Shown here in pieces: positions 42-61,461 of a stretch of 64,000 nucleotides of DNA. The stretch spans positions 7,550 through 71,549 of the forward strand of contig JBBPIL010000007.1 in the NCBI GenBank assembly GCA_038040365.1. Reading direction: 5' to 3'. The position numbers were made by a program, and so were the translations under genes. Position 1 is the first letter of the stretch; each line of letters begins with the position of its first letter. Origin of the DNA: Actinomycetota bacterium. GTDB lineage: Bacteria > Actinomycetota > Thermoleophilia > Solirubrobacterales > 70-9. Under the pieces are notes generated by a model. The model made no database searches and had not been told where the DNA came from. It saw only the letters and a list, made by a program, of their open reading frames with translations.

Positions 42-2114
42 CTACTTGCCGCTCACGGCTTCGAGCACGGCCTTCCGAGCGTCGGCCGGCTCGAGCACGA
101 CCAAGTCGCCGACGCCCTTGAGGATCTCCCGCACGAGCCAGTCGGCGGAGCCGTAGGGCAGCTCGACCACCACGGCCTCGTCGGCGAGCTCCTCGACCAC
201 GGTGCGCTCCTCGCGCAGCCAGCGCGCCCGCTCCGGCGAGACCCAGACGCGGGCCACCCCGGCGCTTCCGACCTCGCCGTGGACGAGCCACTCCTGCTCC
301 GCGAGGCGCTCATCCGTGCCCTGGCGCGACTCGAAGGAGCGCCTGGTGAGCCGCGCCTCCTTCATCCGGTCGAGGCGGAAGTGCCGCGTGTCGGACTTGC
401 CGAGGTCGTAGCAGCCGAGGTACCAGCCCTCCGGGCCGCTGACCAGTTGGTACGGCTCGACCTCGCGCGTGACGAACTCGTCCTCGTTCTCCTTGTAGTA
501 GTGGAGCTCCAGGACCCGGCGCCGCTCGATCGCGTCGTTGACGGTGCGCACGACCTCGGAGTCGTCGCGACCGGGGGCGATCTCGAGGCCCTCCTGCGAG
601 GGGTCGTGGCCGAGCGCTTCGACGATCTTCTGACGCGCGGTGGACAGGCCGGCCTGCGGCAGGTGATCGCCGAACAGGTCGATCGCGGCGACCAGTGCCT
701 TCGCCTCCAGCGGCAGCAGGCGGGCGGGGCGGGCGAAGTTGTCGCCGTAGGTGTCGGCGTCGACCTCGATCTCGTCTCCGTCGATCTCGGCGTAGAGCAC
801 GTAGGTGCCGCCGCCGAAGTTGACGACGTTGAGGACGTCGATGTCCTCGCGCAGCTCACCCAGGCTGACGTTCAGCTCGTCTAGAACCGAGTCCACGGAC
901 AGCCGCGCCTGCCGGCGAGCGGCGCCGATCAGCAGGCCGGCAAGCGTCACCAGCCGGGCGAATCGCTCCGGACGGATCACCGACTCCGAGCGCCCATTCG
1001 CCGAGCGTGGCCTGCCGTTGGCCTGGGCCATCGGCCGCGGTCTCCCGGCCACGGGCCGGGAGACCATCTTCGCGAGCGTGAACTTGCCGCTGTGCCGCTT
1101 CCGAAGCAGCTCCAGCCTCTCGGTTGCCTCCCGGGCCAGGTCCTCAGGCTCGAGCAGCTTCGCGTTCTCCCGCCAGCCGAGCACCCAGGAGATCAGCTGA
1201 CGGGATGAGGCATACTCGGTCTCGTAGATCGCGCCTCGGCCGCGTACGCCATCCTGCTTCGTCGCCTTGCTCAGCTTGCCGTAGCCGCCGAAGTCGCGCT
1301 CCACGAGCCAGGCGATCCGCTCGCGCAGGAACACCCGCCCGGTGCCGTCGATCTCGCCCATCTGCCAGTCGGCGCGCGACGCGTAGTCCCGCCGATCGAA
1401 GTCCTGGGGCGGGGCGAAGTCGTGCTCCGCCTTGGTCGCGTAGGAGACCTTGGCACGGATCCGCGAGAGGCGGAAAACCCGCACCTGATCGCGCTCGTGC
1501 GAATGGCCGATCAAGTAGAACTGGCCGTTGCGAAAGACGAGGTGGTAGGGGTCCACCTTGCGATCGGATACCTCGTCGCGCTGCAGCGAGTAGTAGCTGA
1601 ACTCGATCGTCTTGCGCCGAGAGATCGCGGTTTCGATCTTCGCCAGGCGCTGCGAGAGCTCGCGGCCCCCTCCCGACGGGGCGAGCTTGACGTCTATGGA
1701 GGTCGAGTCGCTCTCCTCGAGGGGGCTGGGACGCCCCCAGGAGACCTGCTGGAGGGCCAGGCGCAGCGGCTCGGCATAGGCGAACTCGCCATCGAGCAGT
1801 ACGAGCGCCGTGCGCAGGGCCGCCAACTCGCCGTCGGTGAACTCGACTGGCGGCAGGTAGTAGTTCTCGGGTGGCAGCGCGTAGAGCTCCGCCTCGAAAA
1901 AGCCCTCGGCCGGCTTCTCGACCTGGAGCGAGATGCCGAGGCTGTCGAGCTCGGCGCGATCCGCGTAGAAGCGGCGCGCGAAGGCATCGTCGTTCATGGA
2001 GCTGTAGCCCTCCACCTCGCGTTTGATCTCGAGTGCCGAAACGGGCCGCCCGTTGGCCATCAGGAACGAGATCAGGGAGAGTTGGCGGATCAGCTTCTCG
2101 GTGTCCTTGGCCAC
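42..2114 (-). CDS. WYL-domain transcriptional regulator, fused two-module PafB/PafC-like (HTH-WYL x2)
   Basis: 690-aa ORF with GTG start. It has an HTH-like LIRQLSLISFLMANGRPVSALEI and a WYL core VDPYHLVFRNGQFYLIGH..VRVFRLSRI. A second HTH-like segment and WYL core VEPYQLVSGPEGWYLGCYD..RHFRLDRM follow. Confidence 0.8.
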   Translation of the reverse strand: MAKDTEKLIRQLSLISFLMANGRPVSALEIKREVEGYSSMNDDAFARRFYADRAELDSLGISLQVEKPAEGFFEAELYALPPENYYLPPVEFTDGELAALRTALVLLDGEFAYAEPLRLALQQVSWGRPSPLEESDSTSIDVKLAPSGGGRELSQRLAKIETAISRRKTIEFSYYSLQRDEVSDRKVDPYHLVFRNGQFYLIGHSHERDQVRVFRLSRIRAKVSYATKAEHDFAPPQDFDRRDYASRADWQMGEIDGTGRVFLRERIAWLVERDFGGYGKLSKATKQDGVRGRGAIYETEYASSRQLISWVLGWRENAKLLEPEDLAREATERLELLRKRHSGKFTLAKMVSRPVAGRPRPMAQANGRPRSANGRSESVIRPERFARLVTLAGLLIGAARRQARLSVDSVLDELNVSLGELREDIDVLNVVNFGGGTYVLYAEIDGDEIEVDADTYGDNFARPARLLPLEAKALVAAIDLFGDHLPQAGLSTARQKIVEALGHDPSQEGLEIAPGRDDSEVVRTVNDAIERRRVLELHYYKENEDEFVTREVEPYQLVSGPEGWYLGCYDLGKSDTRHFRLDRMKEARLTRRSFESRQGTDERLAEQEWLVHGEVGSAGVARVWVSPERARWLREERTVVEELADEAVVVELPYGSADWLVREILKGVGDLVVLEPADARKAVLEAVSGK

Positions 2115-54846: not shown

Positions 54847-55338
54847 TCACTCCTCGCCCTTGGCGAAGTCCTCGGGCGTCACCTGGTCGAGGAAATCCTT
54901 GAACTTCTCGACCACCTCCTCGGTGTCCTCGACCTCGTGCTCGAACTCGATCGAGGATTCGTCGATCACGTCGTCGGCGGCGAAGATCGGCGCCTGGGTC
55001 CGCACTGCCAGCGCGATCGCGTCCGAGGGGCGGGAGTCGATCTCGAGCTCGGAGCCGTTCATGGAGATCGTGATCGAGGCGTAGAAGGTGTTGTCACGAA
55101 GCTCGGTCACCGCGACCCGCTCGCACTTTGCGTCCACCTGCTCCAGCAAGTCCGAAAGCAGGTCGTGGGTCATCGGTCGCGGGGTCGAGGCGCCCTGAAG
55201 CTTCATCAGGATCGCCGCCGCCTCGGGGTGGCCGATCCAGATCGGCAGGAACCGATTCCCGTCCACGGTCTTCAAGAGAACAATCGGCTGCTTGCCGACC
55301 ATGTCGAAGCTGACGCCGTAAATCTGCATCTGCTGCAA
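54847..55338 (-). CDS. bifunctional nuclease (BFN/DUF151) family protein
   Basis: PIWIGHPEAAAI, RPMTHDLL, DSRPSDAIALA. The start is TTG at 55338 (GGGAG 7 nt upstream) or ATG at 55329. Confidence 0.8.
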   Translation of the reverse strand: MQQMQIYGVSFDMVGKQPIVLLKTVDGNRFLPIWIGHPEAAAILMKLQGASTPRPMTHDLLSDLLEQVDAKCERVAVTELRDNTFYASITISMNGSELEIDSRPSDAIALAVRTQAPIFAADDVIDESSIEFEHEVEDTEEVVEKFKDFLDQVTPEDFAKGEE

Positions 55339-55471
55339 GGTGATCTCCCGGCCGCGCGTGGCCTGCGAGCCATTATACGAGCGGGTCGGCGCCCTGACCG
55401 GGGCGCTGGCGCCACACTCAGGGGGCCGGTCTGGGACACCAGCGTCGGAATGAAACGGCCATAATCGGCCC

Positions 55472-55909
55472 GTGTCCGAGGCTCGCCAGCAGGCCTTCAT
55501 CGAGGCCCCAATCGACGTGGTCTGGGAGCTGCTCGAGGATGTCGACCGGCATCCTGAGTGGTGGCCGCGGGTCGTCGAGGTGAAGTGCGAGGGCCTCGAG
55601 GCCGGTTGCACCTACCGCGAGGTGGTCCGGGGTCCGGTGGGTAAGGAAGACATGCTGCTCCGAGTGGATCGGATGGAGGACTGCAAGGAGCTCCTGATCC
55701 GCTGCGTGAACACCGGCACCTTCGTCCACTGGCTGCTCACGGAGGCGCAGGAGGGGACCTTCGTCGACGCCAGGTTCGGCATGGACCCGGGCAAGATCCA
55801 GTACCGGATCTTCGACCTGGTCGCGGGCAAGCGCTACTTCCGCAGCTGGCTCCTGCAGTCGCTCGACGCCATGCAAGAGGCCGCGCGCGAGCGAGCCGCC
55901 CACGTGTAG
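55472..55909 (+). CDS. SRPBCC (polyketide cyclase/START-like) family protein
   Basis: FIEAPIDVVWELLEDVDRHPEWWP. The GTG start lies 6 nt after CATAAT. Confidence 0.75.
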   Translation: MSEARQQAFIEAPIDVVWELLEDVDRHPEWWPRVVEVKCEGLEAGCTYREVVRGPVGKEDMLLRVDRMEDCKELLIRCVNTGTFVHWLLTEAQEGTFVDARFGMDPGKIQYRIFDLVAGKRYFRSWLLQSLDAMQEAARERAAHV

Positions 55910-56159
55910 CGGTGCCCGGCTCGAAGGACAAGCGCGGCGCCGACCTCTTCGTCCCGCGCGAAGTCGTCACGCAGCCCTTCTGGCTCACTCAGCCCGAGTT
56001 TCACCTAAGCTGGCGGTTGCGGTGCCTACCGATCAGGTATGGGCAGGATGGCCAGAGGTTTCGGGGAGCTCGAGGGATGACGAATTCAGCGGGGGCTGCT
56101 CCAGCCCGTCGGCGTGAGAACCGACGTATGCGAAGCGGCCCTGCGCAGGGGACTCCGCA

Positions 56160-56567
56160 GTGATTGCGAACCGCGCATCACCTCGGCTAGTGCTCGCAGT
56201 GGCCGTACTTCTGGCTCAATGCGTCGTTGCCTTCTGGCAGCATCTGGGTGACACCCGCTATTTCACGTGGGCACCGAACGATTATCTGGTCAGCTACGGC
56301 TTGCAGGTCACGGTGGATGGCCGGCGACTGACCCGGGAGGAGATCAGTCACCGCTACCACCTCCCTTTCAGGGAGACGCTCGACCGCGATGATAAGGAGG
56401 AGCTGGGCCTCAACATGCGGGAGCGTCACGTCCATGAGGACCCTCCCCAGAGTCTCCTAGACCGCATTACCCGGTATGAGACGGGCGGCTTCGGGAGCCC
56501 TGCTAGGGTCAGGCTGATCTACCAGCTCAATGGCGGTGAGGAACACCGTTGGCGGTGGCCTAAATGA
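56160..56567 (+). CDS. small single-pass membrane protein (possible SdpA/DUF5819-like partner of the next gene)
   Basis: GTG start. TM helix LVLAVAVLLAQCVVAFW followed by a soluble domain of about 105 aa. ATGA overlap with the next gene. Lower-GC codon usage. Confidence 0.5.
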   Translation: MIANRASPRLVLAVAVLLAQCVVAFWQHLGDTRYFTWAPNDYLVSYGLQVTVDGRRLTREEISHRYHLPFRETLDRDDKEELGLNMRERHVHEDPPQSLLDRITRYETGGFGSPARVRLIYQLNGGEEHRWRWPK

Positions 56568-57655
56568 GGGGGGCCGAGCCGACACACCATTCCTTGAATC
56601 CGCTGGCCACCCGAGGAACGCCCCTTCCGCCGAATGTCCTCCTGGCCGCGAAGCTAATCACGTTGGTGTTCTTGCTCCTTGGTAGCTGGCGGCTCACTGC
56701 TCCCTATCTACCGTTCATTGGATTCCTAGATGACCTGTTTTCACCACAGGTCTTCCAGCACACGCTTCAGGCTGTATGGCTGCTTGCTGCGCTGTCGCTA
56801 TTCATGAACCGCTTCGTCCGGCCCTCATGCGCAGTACTCGGAATAGTGATCCTGATCGCAATGCTGTCGTCGCACGCGTACCGTTCGAATAACACAATGT
56901 TTACCGGGCTCCTGCTGTTTCTCATCGGGATGTCGGATCGAGAAACGGCGTCGATGATCATACGATGGCAGCTCGTCGTGCTCTACTTCTGGGCCGGTCT
57001 CAACAAGCTGCTTGACCCGGATTGGAGATCGGGTGCCTTCTTCGAGGTCTGGAACTCGACCCAGGGTTGGGGTGAGCTCTATAGTGGGCTGGCCTCTCTA
57101 TTGCCATCGATGGTGTTTTCCGCGATCCTCAGCTGGGGTGCAATCGTGACAGAGCTGTTCCTGGCAGTGGCATTCGCTATCCGTAGGCTGGTCATCGCCG
57201 GGATACTTCTAGCGGTCGTGTACCACAGCTCGATTCTGTTCCTTACGGGGGACACGTTCACCATGTTCTGGTATGCAGTTCTAGCTGCCTGCATTGCGCT
57301 CCTCGAATGGCCCGCGAACCCGCCGGCGGTCCATTACCGAAGGGACGGCCCGCTTGGCGGAATCACGGTGCTGCTCCACAAACTGGATCTCGCCGGTGCG
57401 TTCACGTGGGAACGGAACGAACGGTCCGGACTACGGATTGTCATCGGAGAACGGGTCTACAACGGTGGTGAGGCTTTGAAGAGGGTCTTGCTCTACAACC
57501 CGATGGTCTACTTCACGTTCTTCACTCTGGTGGCGCTTTCCCCGGCCCCGGGCGGCGGCCGGTGGGCGGCTCTCATCGTATTCGCGACTGTCGGTTACGC
57601 CGTGATCGACCTGGTTAAAGGGAAGTTCTTTGCGCGCTTGGAGGTCGGGACATAA
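56564..57655 (+). CDS. polytopic membrane protein, HTTM/SdpB/LMF-like, with C-terminal cysteine-less DCC(DUF393)-like domain
   Basis: 363 aa with about 8-10 TM helices. VVLYFWAGLNKLLDPDWRSGAFF motif. The C-terminal VHYRRDGPLGGITVLLHKLDLAGAFTW parallels the DCC fold start. This is the lowest-GC part of the window. Confidence 0.55.
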   Translation: MRGAEPTHHSLNPLATRGTPLPPNVLLAAKLITLVFLLLGSWRLTAPYLPFIGFLDDLFSPQVFQHTLQAVWLLAALSLFMNRFVRPSCAVLGIVILIAMLSSHAYRSNNTMFTGLLLFLIGMSDRETASMIIRWQLVVLYFWAGLNKLLDPDWRSGAFFEVWNSTQGWGELYSGLASLLPSMVFSAILSWGAIVTELFLAVAFAIRRLVIAGILLAVVYHSSILFLTGDTFTMFWYAVLAACIALLEWPANPPAVHYRRDGPLGGITVLLHKLDLAGAFTWERNERSGLRIVIGERVYNGGEALKRVLLYNPMVYFTFFTLVALSPAPGGGRWAALIVFATVGYAVIDLVKGKFFARLEVGT

Positions 57656-57684
57656 GAACGTCACAAGCCCGTCTGGCATCTAGA

Positions 57685-58092
57685 GTGCGGCCCCAGACTG
57701 GGTCCCCCCCGGGAGAACGGCACGTGCTGCTCTTCGACCGCCACTGCGGGTTCTGCAAGTGGTCGCTCGACAAGATCCTCGCCTGGGATCGACGCGGCCG
57801 GCTGAGGGCGGAGCCAATCCAAGGCGCCGAGGGTGAGCGCTTGCTTACCCACATGGCTCCCAGTGAGCGGCTCCAGTCTTGGCATCTCGTCACCCCCGCG
57901 GGGGAGGTTATCTCCGGCGGAGCCGCCGCCGAGCCGCTCGCCCGGCTGCTTCCTGGCGGACTGCCGCTCGCCTTTCTGTTCCGCTCCTTTCCGGGGCTCA
58001 CGGATCGCGCCTACCGATGGGTTGCCGGGAACCGCGACCGCCTGGCCGGCCTGCTGCGGATCGACCCCAACTGCGAGCTCCGGAGTCGCTAA
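57685..58092 (+). CDS. DCC1-like thiol-disulfide oxidoreductase (DUF393)
   Basis: VLLFDRHCGFCKWSLDKILAWDRRGRLR matches the DCC pattern (DGxCxxC .. D..g.l.f). Confidence 0.75.
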   Translation: MRPQTGSPPGERHVLLFDRHCGFCKWSLDKILAWDRRGRLRAEPIQGAEGERLLTHMAPSERLQSWHLVTPAGEVISGGAAAEPLARLLPGGLPLAFLFRSFPGLTDRAYRWVAGNRDRLAGLLRIDPNCELRSR

Positions 58093-58113
58093 TGGACCAA
58101 GCCCAGCCCTATG

Positions 58114-58139
58114 GGATGGGCGATCCTGGACTCGAACCA
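58114..58139. repeat. 26-nt perfect direct repeat of the tRNA-Ile 3' end (att-like remnant)
   Basis: GGATGGGCGATCCTGGACTCGAACCA at 58114-58139 is identical to 58191-58216, which is the 3' 23 nt of tRNA-Ile plus 3 flanking nt. Confidence 0.9.
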
Positions 58140-58193
58140 CAGCGAGCCCGGATGGCGAGCGATGGCCCTGGTTCGCGGCCAGGGCGACCTGGA

Positions 58194-58267
58194 TGGGCGA
58201 TCCTGGACTCGAACCAGGGACCTCCTCCTTATCAGAGAGGCGCTCTGACCGACTGAGCTAATCGCCC
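58194..58267 (-). tRNA. tRNA-Ile (anticodon GAT)
   Basis: The minus strand reads GGGCGATTAGCTCAGTCGGTCAGAGCGCCTCTCTGATAAGGAGGAGGTCCCTGGTTCGAGTCCAGGATCGCCCA. Anticodon loop CTGATAA. CCA is not encoded. Confidence 0.9.
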
Positions 58268-59047: not shown

Positions 59048-59888
59048 TCAGCCGGCGGAGCCGCGCTCGCGGGCGAAGGCCAAGAGCTCGTCCAGGTCGT
59101 CGAATTGGAGCTCGGCGCGGATGCCGCGGCGGGCGGGGCGGACCCGGACGCCGGTGCCGAGCGCCGACTCGAGCGCCTCCTCGGCGCGGACCAGCGCGGC
59201 CTCCTGATCGGGGTGGGGGACGACCTTGAAGCCCTTCGGAGCGTTGGCCTCTTTCGCCCTACGCTCCGTCTCGCGAACCGACCAATCGCGCCTCGCGGCC
59301 TCGCGGGCGAGCGCGCGGCGGGTTTCGTTGTCCGGCGCCTGGAGGATCGCCCGACCGTGACCCTCGCTGAGCTCGCCCGAGACGAGCAGGTCGAGCGCCT
59401 CGTCGGGAAGTTCGAGGAGGCGGATCAGGTTGGAGATCGAGGGCCGGCTTCGGCCGAGCCTCCGCGCCAGCTCCTTCTTCCTGAGCCCCAGGTCCTCGAT
59501 CAGCGCCGCGCAGGCGCGCGCCTCGTCCACGGGGTTGAGGTCCTCGCGCGCCATGTTCTCGATCAGCGCCGTCTGAAGGCGCTCGGCCTCGGCCTCGTCG
59601 CGGACGATCGCGGGCACCGTCTGAAGGCCGGCCTCTCGCGCTGCCCGCCAGCGGCGCTCGCCGGCGATCAGCTCGTAGCGACCGTCGCGAAGAGGGCGCA
59701 CGATCAGCGGCTGAACGACGCCGGCGTCGGCGAGCGACGCCGCCAAGGTCTTGATCGAGTCGGAACCGAACTGCGTCCGCGGCTGACGCGGGTTCCGGCG
59801 GATCAGCTCCACCGGCAGCTCCCGAAGCTCCGGCTCCTCCACGGCCGTCTCGGGCAGGATCGCCGCCAGGCCGCGGCCCATCCCCGGC

Positions 59889-59896
<8 letters not shown>
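59048..59896 (-). CDS. parB: chromosome partitioning protein ParB
   Basis: ATG at 59896 (MTKPGMGRGLAAIL). LIAGERRWRAA. The HTH region is present. 8-nt overlap with the parA stop. Confidence 0.9.
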
Positions 59897-60716
<820 letters not shown>

Positions 60717-60753
60717 TCGGTGCGACCTTACCCACGGCCTCCGACGGGAGCCG

Positions 60754-61461
60754 TCAGCGACCACCCACGGGCCGTTTCTTGGCCATCCCGGGGCGGCGGG
60801 GAAGGTCGTCGGGGGTCGGCCCGGTCTTGTGCATCACATGCAGGTGGCGATGTCGGGAGCCCGCGTATGGACCCACCCATCTGATCTCCGCCGGCTCCAT
60901 CGCCAGGCGCGCCGAAGCCCGTTGCAGCTCCCCCTCCTCGTCCGCGTCCCGGCGGCCCTTCCAGGCGATGAGAGCGCCTCCCTCGACCAAGAGCGGCGAC
61001 GCCAACTCGGCCAGCGTCGAGAGGCGTCCGACCGCACGGGCGGTGACGGCGTCGTAGCCCTCGCGCCCGCCGTCGGGCGGGGGGTCGGCGGCCCAGCTCT
61101 CGGAGCGCTCGCAGACGACCCGGGCGTTGCCGATCCCCGCTCGCTCGATCGCCTGGCGGATGAACTCGCACTTGCGTCCGGTCGACTCGATCAGGTCGAC
61201 GTGGCCATCGGGCAGCGCGACCGCGAGCGGCAGACCTGGAAAGCCGGCGCCCGCCCCCAGGTCGGCGATCCGCCGCGCGACCCGCAGCGCCTCGACCTCG
61301 AGGCCGGTCAGCGAGTCGGCGACGTGGACGCGCCATGCCTGCGCCGGGTCGCGTACGGCGCTCGGCGCCGCCCGCTCTTCGGCGAGCAGGTCGAGGATGG
61401 TGCGCATCGCCTCGCGCGCCTGGTCGGACAGCTGGACCGCGTCGTCGGACTCGGCGCTCAA
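60754..61461 (-). CDS. rsmG: 16S rRNA (guanine527-N7)-methyltransferase
   Basis: SAM motif IADLGAGAGFPGLPLAV. The TTG start overlaps the jag stop (TTGA). Confidence 0.9.
   Translation of the reverse strand: MSAESDDAVQLSDQAREAMRTILDLLAEERAAPSAVRDPAQAWRVHVADSLTGLEVEALRVARRIADLGAGAGFPGLPLAVALPDGHVDLIESTGRKCEFIRQAIERAGIGNARVVCERSESWAADPPPDGGREGYDAVTARAVGRLSTLAELASPLLVEGGALIAWKGRRDADEEGELQRASARLAMEPAEIRWVGPYAGSRHRHLHVMHKTGPTPDDLPRRPGMAKKRPVGGR

Follow-up and report, generated by a model that had tools for sequence, protein, structure and literature searches.

An acquired or variable three-gene islet beside tRNA-Ile, encoding an HTTM protein with a GGCX-type fold, its small conserved partner and a DCC1-like protein

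The DNA described here is a stretch of 64,000 nucleotides from an Actinomycetota bacterium of the Solirubrobacterales (assembly GCA_038040365.1, contig JBBPIL010000007.1). The whole stretch is termed the window, and coordinates throughout are window positions unless the locus of a relative is named. Between an SRPBCC gene and a tRNA-Ile gene the window carries a compact islet of three same-strand open reading frames (ORFs). These encode, in order, a small protein with a single transmembrane (TM) helix, a polytopic membrane protein of the HTTM family and a stand-alone DCC1-like thiol-disulfide oxidoreductase. An initial annotation of the stretch, made from the sequence alone, had placed the three genes at 56160–56567, 56564–57655 and 57685–58092, with an ATGA overlap between the first two, the motif VVLYFWAGLNKLLDPDWRSGAFF in the second and DRHCGFC in the third, and all of these readings are confirmed. 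The islet and its coding parts are as follows.

55924–58116, no strand: the acquired or variable islet, 2193 bp, with borders at the breakpoints of homology to the islet-free relative L028
56160–56567, plus strand: ORF1, 135 amino acids, an N-terminal TM helix (residues 8–29) followed by a small alpha/beta domain
56564–57313, plus strand: HTTM (GGCX-like) polytopic core of ORF2, residues 1–250, about eight TM helices
57005–57007, plus strand: codon for K148 of ORF2, within the motif AGLNKLLDPDW and aligned to GGCX K218
57314–57655, plus strand: DCC-like (thioredoxin-fold) domain without cysteines, then two hydrophobic C-terminal helices, ORF2 residues 251–363
57685–58092, plus strand: ORF3, stand-alone DCC1-like thiol-disulfide oxidoreductase, Pfam DCC1-like 67.8 bits

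The islet differs from its surroundings in base composition. Its GC fraction is 0.617, against 0.699 ± 0.015 for equal-sized sliding windows outside it, which never fall below 0.66. Windows of 300 nt across 56000–57650 go down to 0.56–0.62, with about 0.70–0.75 on both sides, and the bin 56001–58000 (0.612) is the lowest among all 63 2-kb bins, in keeping with the low G+C that had been counted by hand. GC at third codon positions (GC3) is 0.71 in ORF1, 0.72 in ORF2 and 0.82 in ORF3, compared with 0.85–0.96 in eight flanking genes. Close relatives, recovered as metagenome contigs by scanning with the neighbouring PNPOx protein, provide the empty site. In three of them (L028, L029 and L034) the gene order is Ddl, BFN-domain gene, SRPBCC, tRNA-Ile, PNPOx and ParB, ORF1 to ORF3 are absent, and only 30–100 nt lie between SRPBCC and the tRNA region. 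L028 shares 96% identity with the window in Ddl, 95% in the BFN protein, 92% in ParB and 84% in PNPOx; its blastn match stops at 55923 and restarts at 58117, with 28 nt between the two in L028. The empty site in close relatives, combined with the deviation of GC and GC3 from the flanks, identifies the islet as an insertion of horizontally acquired or variable DNA, in agreement with the horizontal origin first proposed. ORF3 is part of this insertion, since it is also missing from the islet-free relatives. The same three genes occupy the same site in L107–L111, a lineage about 10% diverged, with approximately 90% identity to the islet. No integrase or mobility gene was found among the islet ORFs in the ORF list or by Pfam scan. 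Absent from relatives with the same flanks and deviant in composition, the islet has neither an integrase nor flanking tRNA-end repeats, and is not a classical integrase-borne tRNA island.

ORF2 encodes 363 amino acids (56564–57655), its ATG overlapping the ORF1 stop codon. Pfam HTTM (PF05090) matches residues 131–243 with 30.2 bits, exceeding the cutoff of 27.7, and the same assignment is precomputed for many ORF2 homologues. The AlphaFold2 model, built from a 25-homologue alignment, reached a mean predicted local distance difference test score (pLDDT) of 88.5 and a predicted TM-score (pTM) of 0.89. [quoted passage not shown] The family profile found GGCX among PDB sequences as well, at E 1e-3, pairing AGLNK-LLDPDW of ORF2 with AGVKK-LDADW of GGCX so that K148 corresponds to K218. 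Further equivalents in this alignment are E197 with D263, H221 with H287, W154 with W223 and F235 with F299, and K148, E197, H221, W154 and F235 are all invariant in the 25-sequence family alignment. In GGCX, K218 and D263 are the epoxidation residues, and the D263E variant stays active (PMC13486548). ORF2 is an HTTM-family protein with a GGCX-type fold and conserved catalytic residues, the active-site lysine and its acidic partner included; its earlier assignment to HTTM holds on both the Pfam score and GGCX as the sole significant fold match. The public NCBI record (MEK6271850.1) gives ORF2 as 329 amino acids from V35 (region concerned 56564–56666). ATG 56564 is the better start, because conserved P13, L21 and K30 precede the annotated one.

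The last ~110 residues of ORF2, overlooked in the initial annotation, form a second domain. Residues ~251–363 can be aligned, column by column, with the DCC domain that Acidobacteriota homologues carry as a fusion; these have the motif DGDCGFC where ORF2 has RRD-GPLG, and no CxxC occurs anywhere in ORF2. A DCC hidden Markov model (HMM) built in this analysis scores 24 bits here (E 7e-6), while Pfam calls no DCC domain at the ORF2 C terminus. The order of elements in the model is beta-alpha-beta-beta-beta-alpha, which is thioredoxin-like, followed by two hydrophobic helices, and weak glutaredoxin-fold matches from a viral fold library extend over ~75 columns of the region. ORF2 thus combines an HTTM core with a fused DCC-like domain devoid of a redox-active CxxC. 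Loops of this domain carry nine lysine and arginine residues, and it is predicted to be cytoplasmic. The loss of cysteines is shared by the whole Thermoleophilia branch, where the HTTM core and ORF1 stay conserved.

The alpha/beta domain of ORF1 is predicted to be extracellular. Three motifs are conserved, RYFxWAPxD just past the helix, RY, and W.WP at the C terminus; in the AlphaFold2 model (pLDDT 80) the invariant RYFxWAPxD falls in a low-confidence linker after the TM helix. Comparison of the model with PDB folds gave no meaningful match (best E 0.14, with kinesin motor domains on top). In 19 of 21 genome loci, drawn from four phyla, the gene immediately preceding the ORF2 homologue encodes an ORF1 homologue, as the proposed pairing of a small TM protein with an HTTM protein had implied. 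The loci come from Gaiellales, Solirubrobacterales, other Actinomycetes metagenome-assembled genomes, Bryobacteraceae and other Acidobacteriota, Elusimicrobia and Polyangium sp. 6x1 (L023). Exceptions to the adjacency are L007 and L017, where the contig starts inside the ORF2 homologue, plus L019, in which no ORF1 homologue was detected. Identities of the ORF1 homologues reach down to ~30%, and the two genes overlap or abut at every locus where both are called. Judged by this arrangement, ORF1 is a true conserved partner of the HTTM protein. Its family falls into 969 clusters at the 90% identity level and 316 at 50%, all named 'hypothetical' and none with a Pfam domain, and is an unnamed, conserved family lacking a Pfam model. 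Pfam gave no SdpA or DUF5819 match for ORF1 and 14 relatives at E ≤ 1, nor for eight more family members at E ≤ 0.01, four of which carry an extra fused domain; against NCBIfam, ORF1 had no match at E ≤ 10.

In place of ORF1, NCBI annotates an antisense ORF of 82 amino acids (56187–56435, minus strand; AABM42_04290, MEK6271849.1), and gene calls on Logan contigs do likewise. That frame is interrupted by a stop codon in relatives, whereas ORF1 is conserved to ~30% identity, and the antisense ORF is rejected as a real gene. Public annotation of the islet is hence corrected at two points, the replacement of ORF1 by an antisense ORF and the N-terminal truncation of ORF2.

ORF3 encodes 135 amino acids from GTG 57685, or 122 from GTG 57724 as annotated by NCBI, where it is named DUF393 domain-containing protein (MEK6271851.1). 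Pfam DCC1-like (PF04134) exceeds its cutoff of 27.8 bits by a wide margin, upholding the DCC identity assigned at the outset, and the DxxCxxC motif is present, DRHCGFC being residues 18–24 of the 135-residue form with CGFC encoded at 57745–57756. The protein shows no signal peptide and no TM peak.

The association of a DCC protein with the ORF1–ORF2 pair recurs in other genomes, in five architectures. ORF1, an HTTM protein with degenerate DCC domain and a stand-alone DCC protein make up the first, seen in the window and in L107–L111, and in L112 with the DCC gene inverted. L112 is an unrelated context in which ORF2 is 67% identical, and an ORF3 orthologue (68% identity, with CGFC) lies just downstream on the opposite strand. 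In Acidobacteriota the HTTM protein has a fused DCC domain that includes CxxC, and the ORF1 homologue is separate. A DCC-TM-ORF1 fusion followed by an HTTM gene is found in P0221 (locus L114), while L115 has a stand-alone DCC gene, an ATP-grasp-TM-ORF1 fusion and an HTTM gene together. The fifth architecture is the ORF1–ORF2 pair alone. Since the fusions, the L112 orthologue, L114 and L115 repeat the association, ORF3 is not a chance neighbour, and the co-occurrence that the initial annotation had anticipated is borne out. As far as gene association can tell, these combinations indicate that HTTM, ORF1 and DCC proteins are functionally linked and work together.

The two kinds of ORF1 fusion help to constrain the topology of the components. 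Because DCC and ORF1 domains flank a TM helix in the DCC-TM-ORF1 fusion, they should lie on opposite sides of the membrane. Together with the orientation of GGCX and the positive-inside rule, this would put K148 on the outer side along with the ORF1 domain, and ORF3 on the inner side along with the DCC-like domain. The fusion to a DCC1-like domain occurs in one representative (P0221, L114 2036–2941). The fusion to an ATP-grasp ligase domain via a TM helix is found in distant representatives (P0206, P0234 and P0269, the last at L115 6001–7461), with the ligase domain on the cytoplasmic side. Genes near the L114 locus include AMP-binding and Lys/Orn N-oxygenase genes.

Beyond the pair or trio, genes differ between loci. 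When 80 flanking ORFs from 22 loci were scanned with Pfam, Peptidase_S8 alone was recurrent (six loci, plus L024), followed by methyltransferases and sugar-nucleotide enzymes. Neither the window nor the Acidobacteria loci have Peptidase_S8, and a conserved fourth gene is rejected. Large Peptidase_S8 (subtilase) genes stand upstream of the ORF1 homologue in L003, L004, L009, L013, L015, L018 and L024, the commonest neighbour of the pair in actinobacterial loci, reflecting either function or inherited gene order. In Gaiellaceae-type loci a gene of the flavin adenine dinucleotide (FAD) amine-oxidase type directly follows the pair (L025 9174–10598, L026 5757–7118 and the P0009 locus), and these loci sit in polysaccharide-biosynthesis neighbourhoods (Wzy, GT4, Polysacc_synt).

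The remaining features of the islet and its right border are the following.

55924–56159, plus strand: islet leader, non-coding, with no Pfam or NCBIfam match and no conserved small ORF in 20 loci
58114–58139, minus strand: 26-nt exact copy of the tRNA-Ile 3' end (T-loop and 3' acceptor strand), the original being 58191–58216
58194–58267, minus strand: tRNA-Ile (GAT), called by ARAGORN and by Rfam tRNA at 72.8 bits, its 3' end facing the islet

The two copies of the 26-nt repeat are offset by 77 nt and lie to the right of the islet, with a chance expectation of 0, and the first is followed by a 51-nt spacer (58140–58190). The duplicated tRNA-Ile end noted by the initial annotation is thus present, but it does not mark the integration of this islet. 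Repeat and spacer are common to the islet-free L028, L029 and L034 and to L036, which makes the duplication older than the islet and rules it out as the islet's integration scar; it is perhaps an old scar of an earlier integration. No third copy was found at the left edge in a search tolerating up to three mismatches. The repeat-spacer unit occupies 58114–58190 in the window, 1825–1898 in L028 and 713–787 in L029, and L036 apparently has one extra, making three copies. A pseudo-tRNA was rejected as an identity for the 77-nt unit, in which only the last 26–28 nt are tRNA-like, ARAGORN and Rfam make no call, and folding does not exceed expectation (z = −2.1). In L036 this SRPBCC/tRNA-Ile junction holds a GNAT acetyltransferase gene (507–1109, minus strand) rather than the HTTM trio, which makes the junction a hot spot for variable cargo. 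In L107 the ORF3 stop is separated from the tRNA-end repeat by 213 additional non-coding nt (2596–2808), which the window does not have.

An 83-residue ORF at 55912–56163 is probably spurious (GC3 0.71, GC at second codon positions 0.60), and neither it nor any other small upstream ORF is retained as a precursor peptide, there being no conservation across 20 loci. Searches of the islet for structured RNA, promoters and terminators gave nothing above background, with no Rfam family over threshold and no promoter consensus. PADLOC returned no match to known anti-phage defence systems for any of the three proteins at E ≤ 0.01, and a defence-system identity was ruled out on that ground. To the right of the islet lie parB, parA and rsmG-like genes (59048–61461), and the insertion therefore sits in a conserved region near the chromosomal replication origin. 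To its left, the maximal BFN-domain ORF (54847–55611, minus strand, 254 amino acids) overlaps the start of the SRPBCC gene (55472–55909, plus strand) by 140 nt; the true BFN start is probably further downstream, because the Pfam domain begins at residue 111.

The islet may encode a self-contained, three-component, menaquinol-dependent membrane enzyme system of the GGCX-like kind, acting on a substrate encoded elsewhere, and we hold the chances of this reading to be evenly balanced. ORF1 and ORF2, translationally coupled, would form a split bacterial GGCX-like complex. ORF2 would contribute the quinone-binding HTTM core, with catalytic K148 and its acidic partner E197 at the outer membrane face, and ORF1 would bring a single TM helix and, in the position of the GGCX lumenal domain, a small domain outside the cytoplasm. 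Such a complex would bind menaquinol and O2, the quinol being deprotonated by K148, and an oxygenated quinone intermediate (epoxide-forming and a strong base) could then modify a substrate at the outer face, by proton abstraction or in another way. Not encoded in the islet, this substrate is probably a generic envelope, lipid or secreted molecule, because the cassette travels alone. The cysteine-less fused DCC domain would probably have a docking or structural role only, and ORF3 would supply CxxC chemistry in the cytoplasm, most plausibly to return the spent quinone to its reduced state with thiols, or for redox control of the enzyme.

Several observations weigh against such a system. The Pfam HTTM score of ORF2 lies only 2.5 bits over the cutoff, and a weaker MauE match falls on the same segment. 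By length and by profile alignment, ORF2 has no counterpart of GGCX residues 374–418. The ORF1 model matches neither the fold of GGCX nor anything else in the PDB, and the DCC parts are predicted on the membrane face opposite K148. In most Thermoleophilia loci the DCC domain is cysteine-less and the nearest 6 kb contain no stand-alone DCC gene, so that DCC redox chemistry may be non-essential to the pair. The ratio of non-synonymous to synonymous divergence (dN/dS) against L107 and L109 is 0.36–0.91 for the three genes and both relatives, with five of the six comparisons at 0.6–0.9. In addition, the subfamily is known from computation alone.

Four other explanations were weighed. In the first, ORF1 and ORF2 would be a true vitamin K-dependent carboxylase, similar to GGCX or MloH, that carboxylates Glu or Asp of a protein, peptide or amino-acid-derived metabolite with CO2 or bicarbonate. 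The residues for quinol deprotonation are conserved, and the missing outer domain could come from ORF1 in trans. The ATP-grasp-ORF1 fusions, and AMP-binding, acyl carrier protein and N-oxygenase neighbours at some loci, hint at amino-acid or peptide chemistry; MloH reportedly carboxylates an aspartyl intermediate, and conservation of GGCX-like enzymes in bacteria has been reported. However, GGCX residues 374–418 are needed for carboxylation, and truncated viral homologues without this region are read as epoxidases only (PMC13486548). The ORF2-GGCX alignment stops near GGCX residue 320 and ORF2 itself ends at 363, so the lumenal domain that would mark a GGCX orthologue is absent; the ORF1 model does not resemble it. 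The islet offers no candidate substrate, and the biosynthetic neighbours lack conservation, the window having none of them. The missing carboxylation region, together with the reading of the truncated viral proteins as epoxidases, favours quinol oxygenation and strong-base chemistry over gamma-carboxylation, which we regard as improbable.

The second explanation, to which we assign a similarly low probability, is a DoxX/MauE-like thiol-quinone oxidoreductase, whose HTTM core would shuttle electrons between menaquinone and the thiols of the DCC protein, in disulfide handling or oxidative stress, with no oxygenation or strong-base chemistry. DoxX-type proteins act in membrane thiol homeostasis in mycobacteria. 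The weak MauE match on the HTTM segment, the labelling of a homologue as DoxX/SURF4 family in one source and the tight link to a CxxC thiol-disulfide oxidoreductase all fit this scheme. On the other side, the best fold matches are to GGCX only, VKOR and DoxX-type folds being not significant, and the invariant residues are those of the GGCX epoxidation site. The fused DCC domain has also lost its cysteines throughout the Thermoleophilia with HTTM core and ORF1 intact, and the conserved extracytoplasmic domain of ORF1 is left unexplained.

The third explanation takes the islet as functionless passenger DNA, the decaying remnant of a larger element. It would account for the absence of integrase and mobility genes, for the variation in presence among close relatives and for the high dN/dS of the islet genes against the closest islet-bearing relatives, where the flanking SRPBCC gene has ~0.2. 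Those recent ratios rest on 4–28 synonymous differences, while across the longer range to L112 the islet genes give dN/dS of 0.23–0.28 (ORF1 0.28), which shows that they are maintained. In addition, the three ORFs are intact with every family-invariant residue kept, the ATGA coupling persists, and the trio is retained in two lineages ~10% diverged; the passenger explanation is very improbable. Synonymous divergence from L107 and L109 is 0.04–0.12 in the islet genes and 0.24–0.34 in the adjacent SRPBCC gene, a two- to five-fold difference on small counts. Low synonymous divergence with high dN/dS suggests later exchange of the islet between related lineages, or relaxed selection.

The least probable explanation, and scarcely a credible one, is that proposed by the initial annotation, an SdpA/SdpB-type module that would mature and export a secreted peptide toxin whose gene has been lost or lies elsewhere: the order of a small single-pass protein and an HTTM protein is the same, HTTM proteins are known in clusters for ribosomally synthesised and post-translationally modified peptides such as linaridins (PMC9927463), and the SdpB model TIGR04033 matches the HTTM core weakly and locally (E 1e-5). 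Against it, this match stays at 25.3 bits where the cutoff is 178.4 and is confined to the HTTM core common to both, in the C-terminal part of the model, neither ORF1 nor any of 22 relatives matches SdpA or DUF5819 in Pfam, no small upstream ORF is conserved in 20 loci, SdpC-, SdpI- and SdpR-like genes are absent from the islet in ORF lists and Pfam scans, the conserved third partner is a DCC protein that the Sdp system does not have, and the neighbours past the trio vary from locus to locus. Membership of ORF2 in SdpB, and of ORF1 in SdpA or DUF5819, is rejected by NCBIfam and Pfam. Of the membrane redox or peptide-maturation module first put forward, the acquired module of HTTM, DCC and partner proteins stands and the SdpA/SdpB reading falls, and the islet indeed holds no substrate, immunity or integrase gene, as had been remarked.

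The quinol-dependent GGCX-like system, if real, would help to explain the role of vitamin K-type chemistry in bacteria. To our knowledge, bacterial HTTM proteins are common, but a reaction has been assigned to hardly any of them other than MloH and the poorly understood SdpB; in the literature on DUF393, YuxK and bacterial HTTM proteins, little was found apart from a preprint and a PNAS paper, both of 2026. The ORF1 family appears to fill the place that DUF5819 or SdpA takes in other HTTM systems. As a compact 2.2-kb unit the trio is transferable and has been retained without a substrate gene, which argues for a generic cellular substrate. A bolder version can be formulated, although it is unlikely. 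In this version the three genes would amount to an entire bacterial 'vitamin K cycle' in portable form, in which ORF1 is an outer subunit of new fold, the split enzyme epoxidises menaquinol, the DCC protein is a re-reducer other than VKOR, and the target is universal in the envelope (lipid, quinone pool or secreted proteins). Were this true, the trio would constitute a new and widespread class of quinol-driven envelope modification in soil Acidobacteriota and Actinomycetota.

Among known systems, SdpA/SdpB of Bacillus subtilis shares with the islet an operon in which a small membrane-anchored protein precedes an HTTM-type polytopic protein. The score of ORF2 (25 vs 178 bits), the lack of an SdpA match, an SdpC precursor or SdpRI, and the DCC protein in third place set the islet apart. 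MloH of malonomycin biosynthesis is a bacterial GGCX-like HTTM enzyme for which quinol-dependent carboxylation is reported, and the comparison is with its published description. By that description MloH is likewise a bacterial HTTM protein, but a single one with a fused outer domain in a polyketide synthase–non-ribosomal peptide synthetase cluster, whereas the islet module is divided between proteins, includes a DCC partner and moves with no biosynthetic genes.

Giant viruses encode modules of a vitamin K epoxidase, a truncated gamma-carboxylase-like protein, with VKOR (PMC13486548). ORF2 resembles the viral epoxidase as a truncated HTTM protein that keeps the lysine of K218, has Glu at the position of D263 and lacks the carboxylation region, and both are paired genetically with a thiol-type redox protein. 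Giant-virus HTTM/epoxidase proteins are also the top fold matches of ORF2 in the viral library, if weak ones (E 0.02–0.03). The viral partner is, however, VKOR and a fused desaturase, not a DCC protein and an ORF1-type subunit, and the setting is the eukaryotic endoplasmic reticulum. With human GGCX itself, ORF2 shares the fold of the membrane core and the catalytic base, K148 standing for K218. It is far shorter (363 vs 758 amino acids), identity is only 16–21%, and the lumenal clamp domain and the 374–418 motif are absent, a DCC-like cytoplasmic domain being present instead. The extra TM helix and outer domain are on a separate protein, and there is no known propeptide-bearing substrate.

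The closest likeness is to a pair from Melghirimyces thermohalophilus, a DUF5819 protein and an HTTM-DCC1-like protein, for which AlphaFold 3 predicts a complex resembling GGCX, in which menaquinol lies close to conserved Lys, Trp and Phe (bioRxiv 10.64898/2026.08.19.745780). There too the two genes are adjacent. [quoted passage not shown] ORF2 retains the quinone-pocket residues Lys, Trp and Phe. In contrast to that pair, ORF1 is not DUF5819 by HMM (0 of 23 family members match) and its domain is shorter (~100 vs ~158 amino acids), while the fused DCC domain of ORF2 has lost its CxxC and a separate DCC gene follows. A small single-pass partner with an HTTM-DCC protein is therefore a kind already known, predicted by computation, and nothing in the islet contradicts current expectations. 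New here are the unnamed partner family in place of DUF5819, the combination of a cysteine-less fused DCC domain with a stand-alone DCC protein, and the trio as a mobile 2.2-kb unit.

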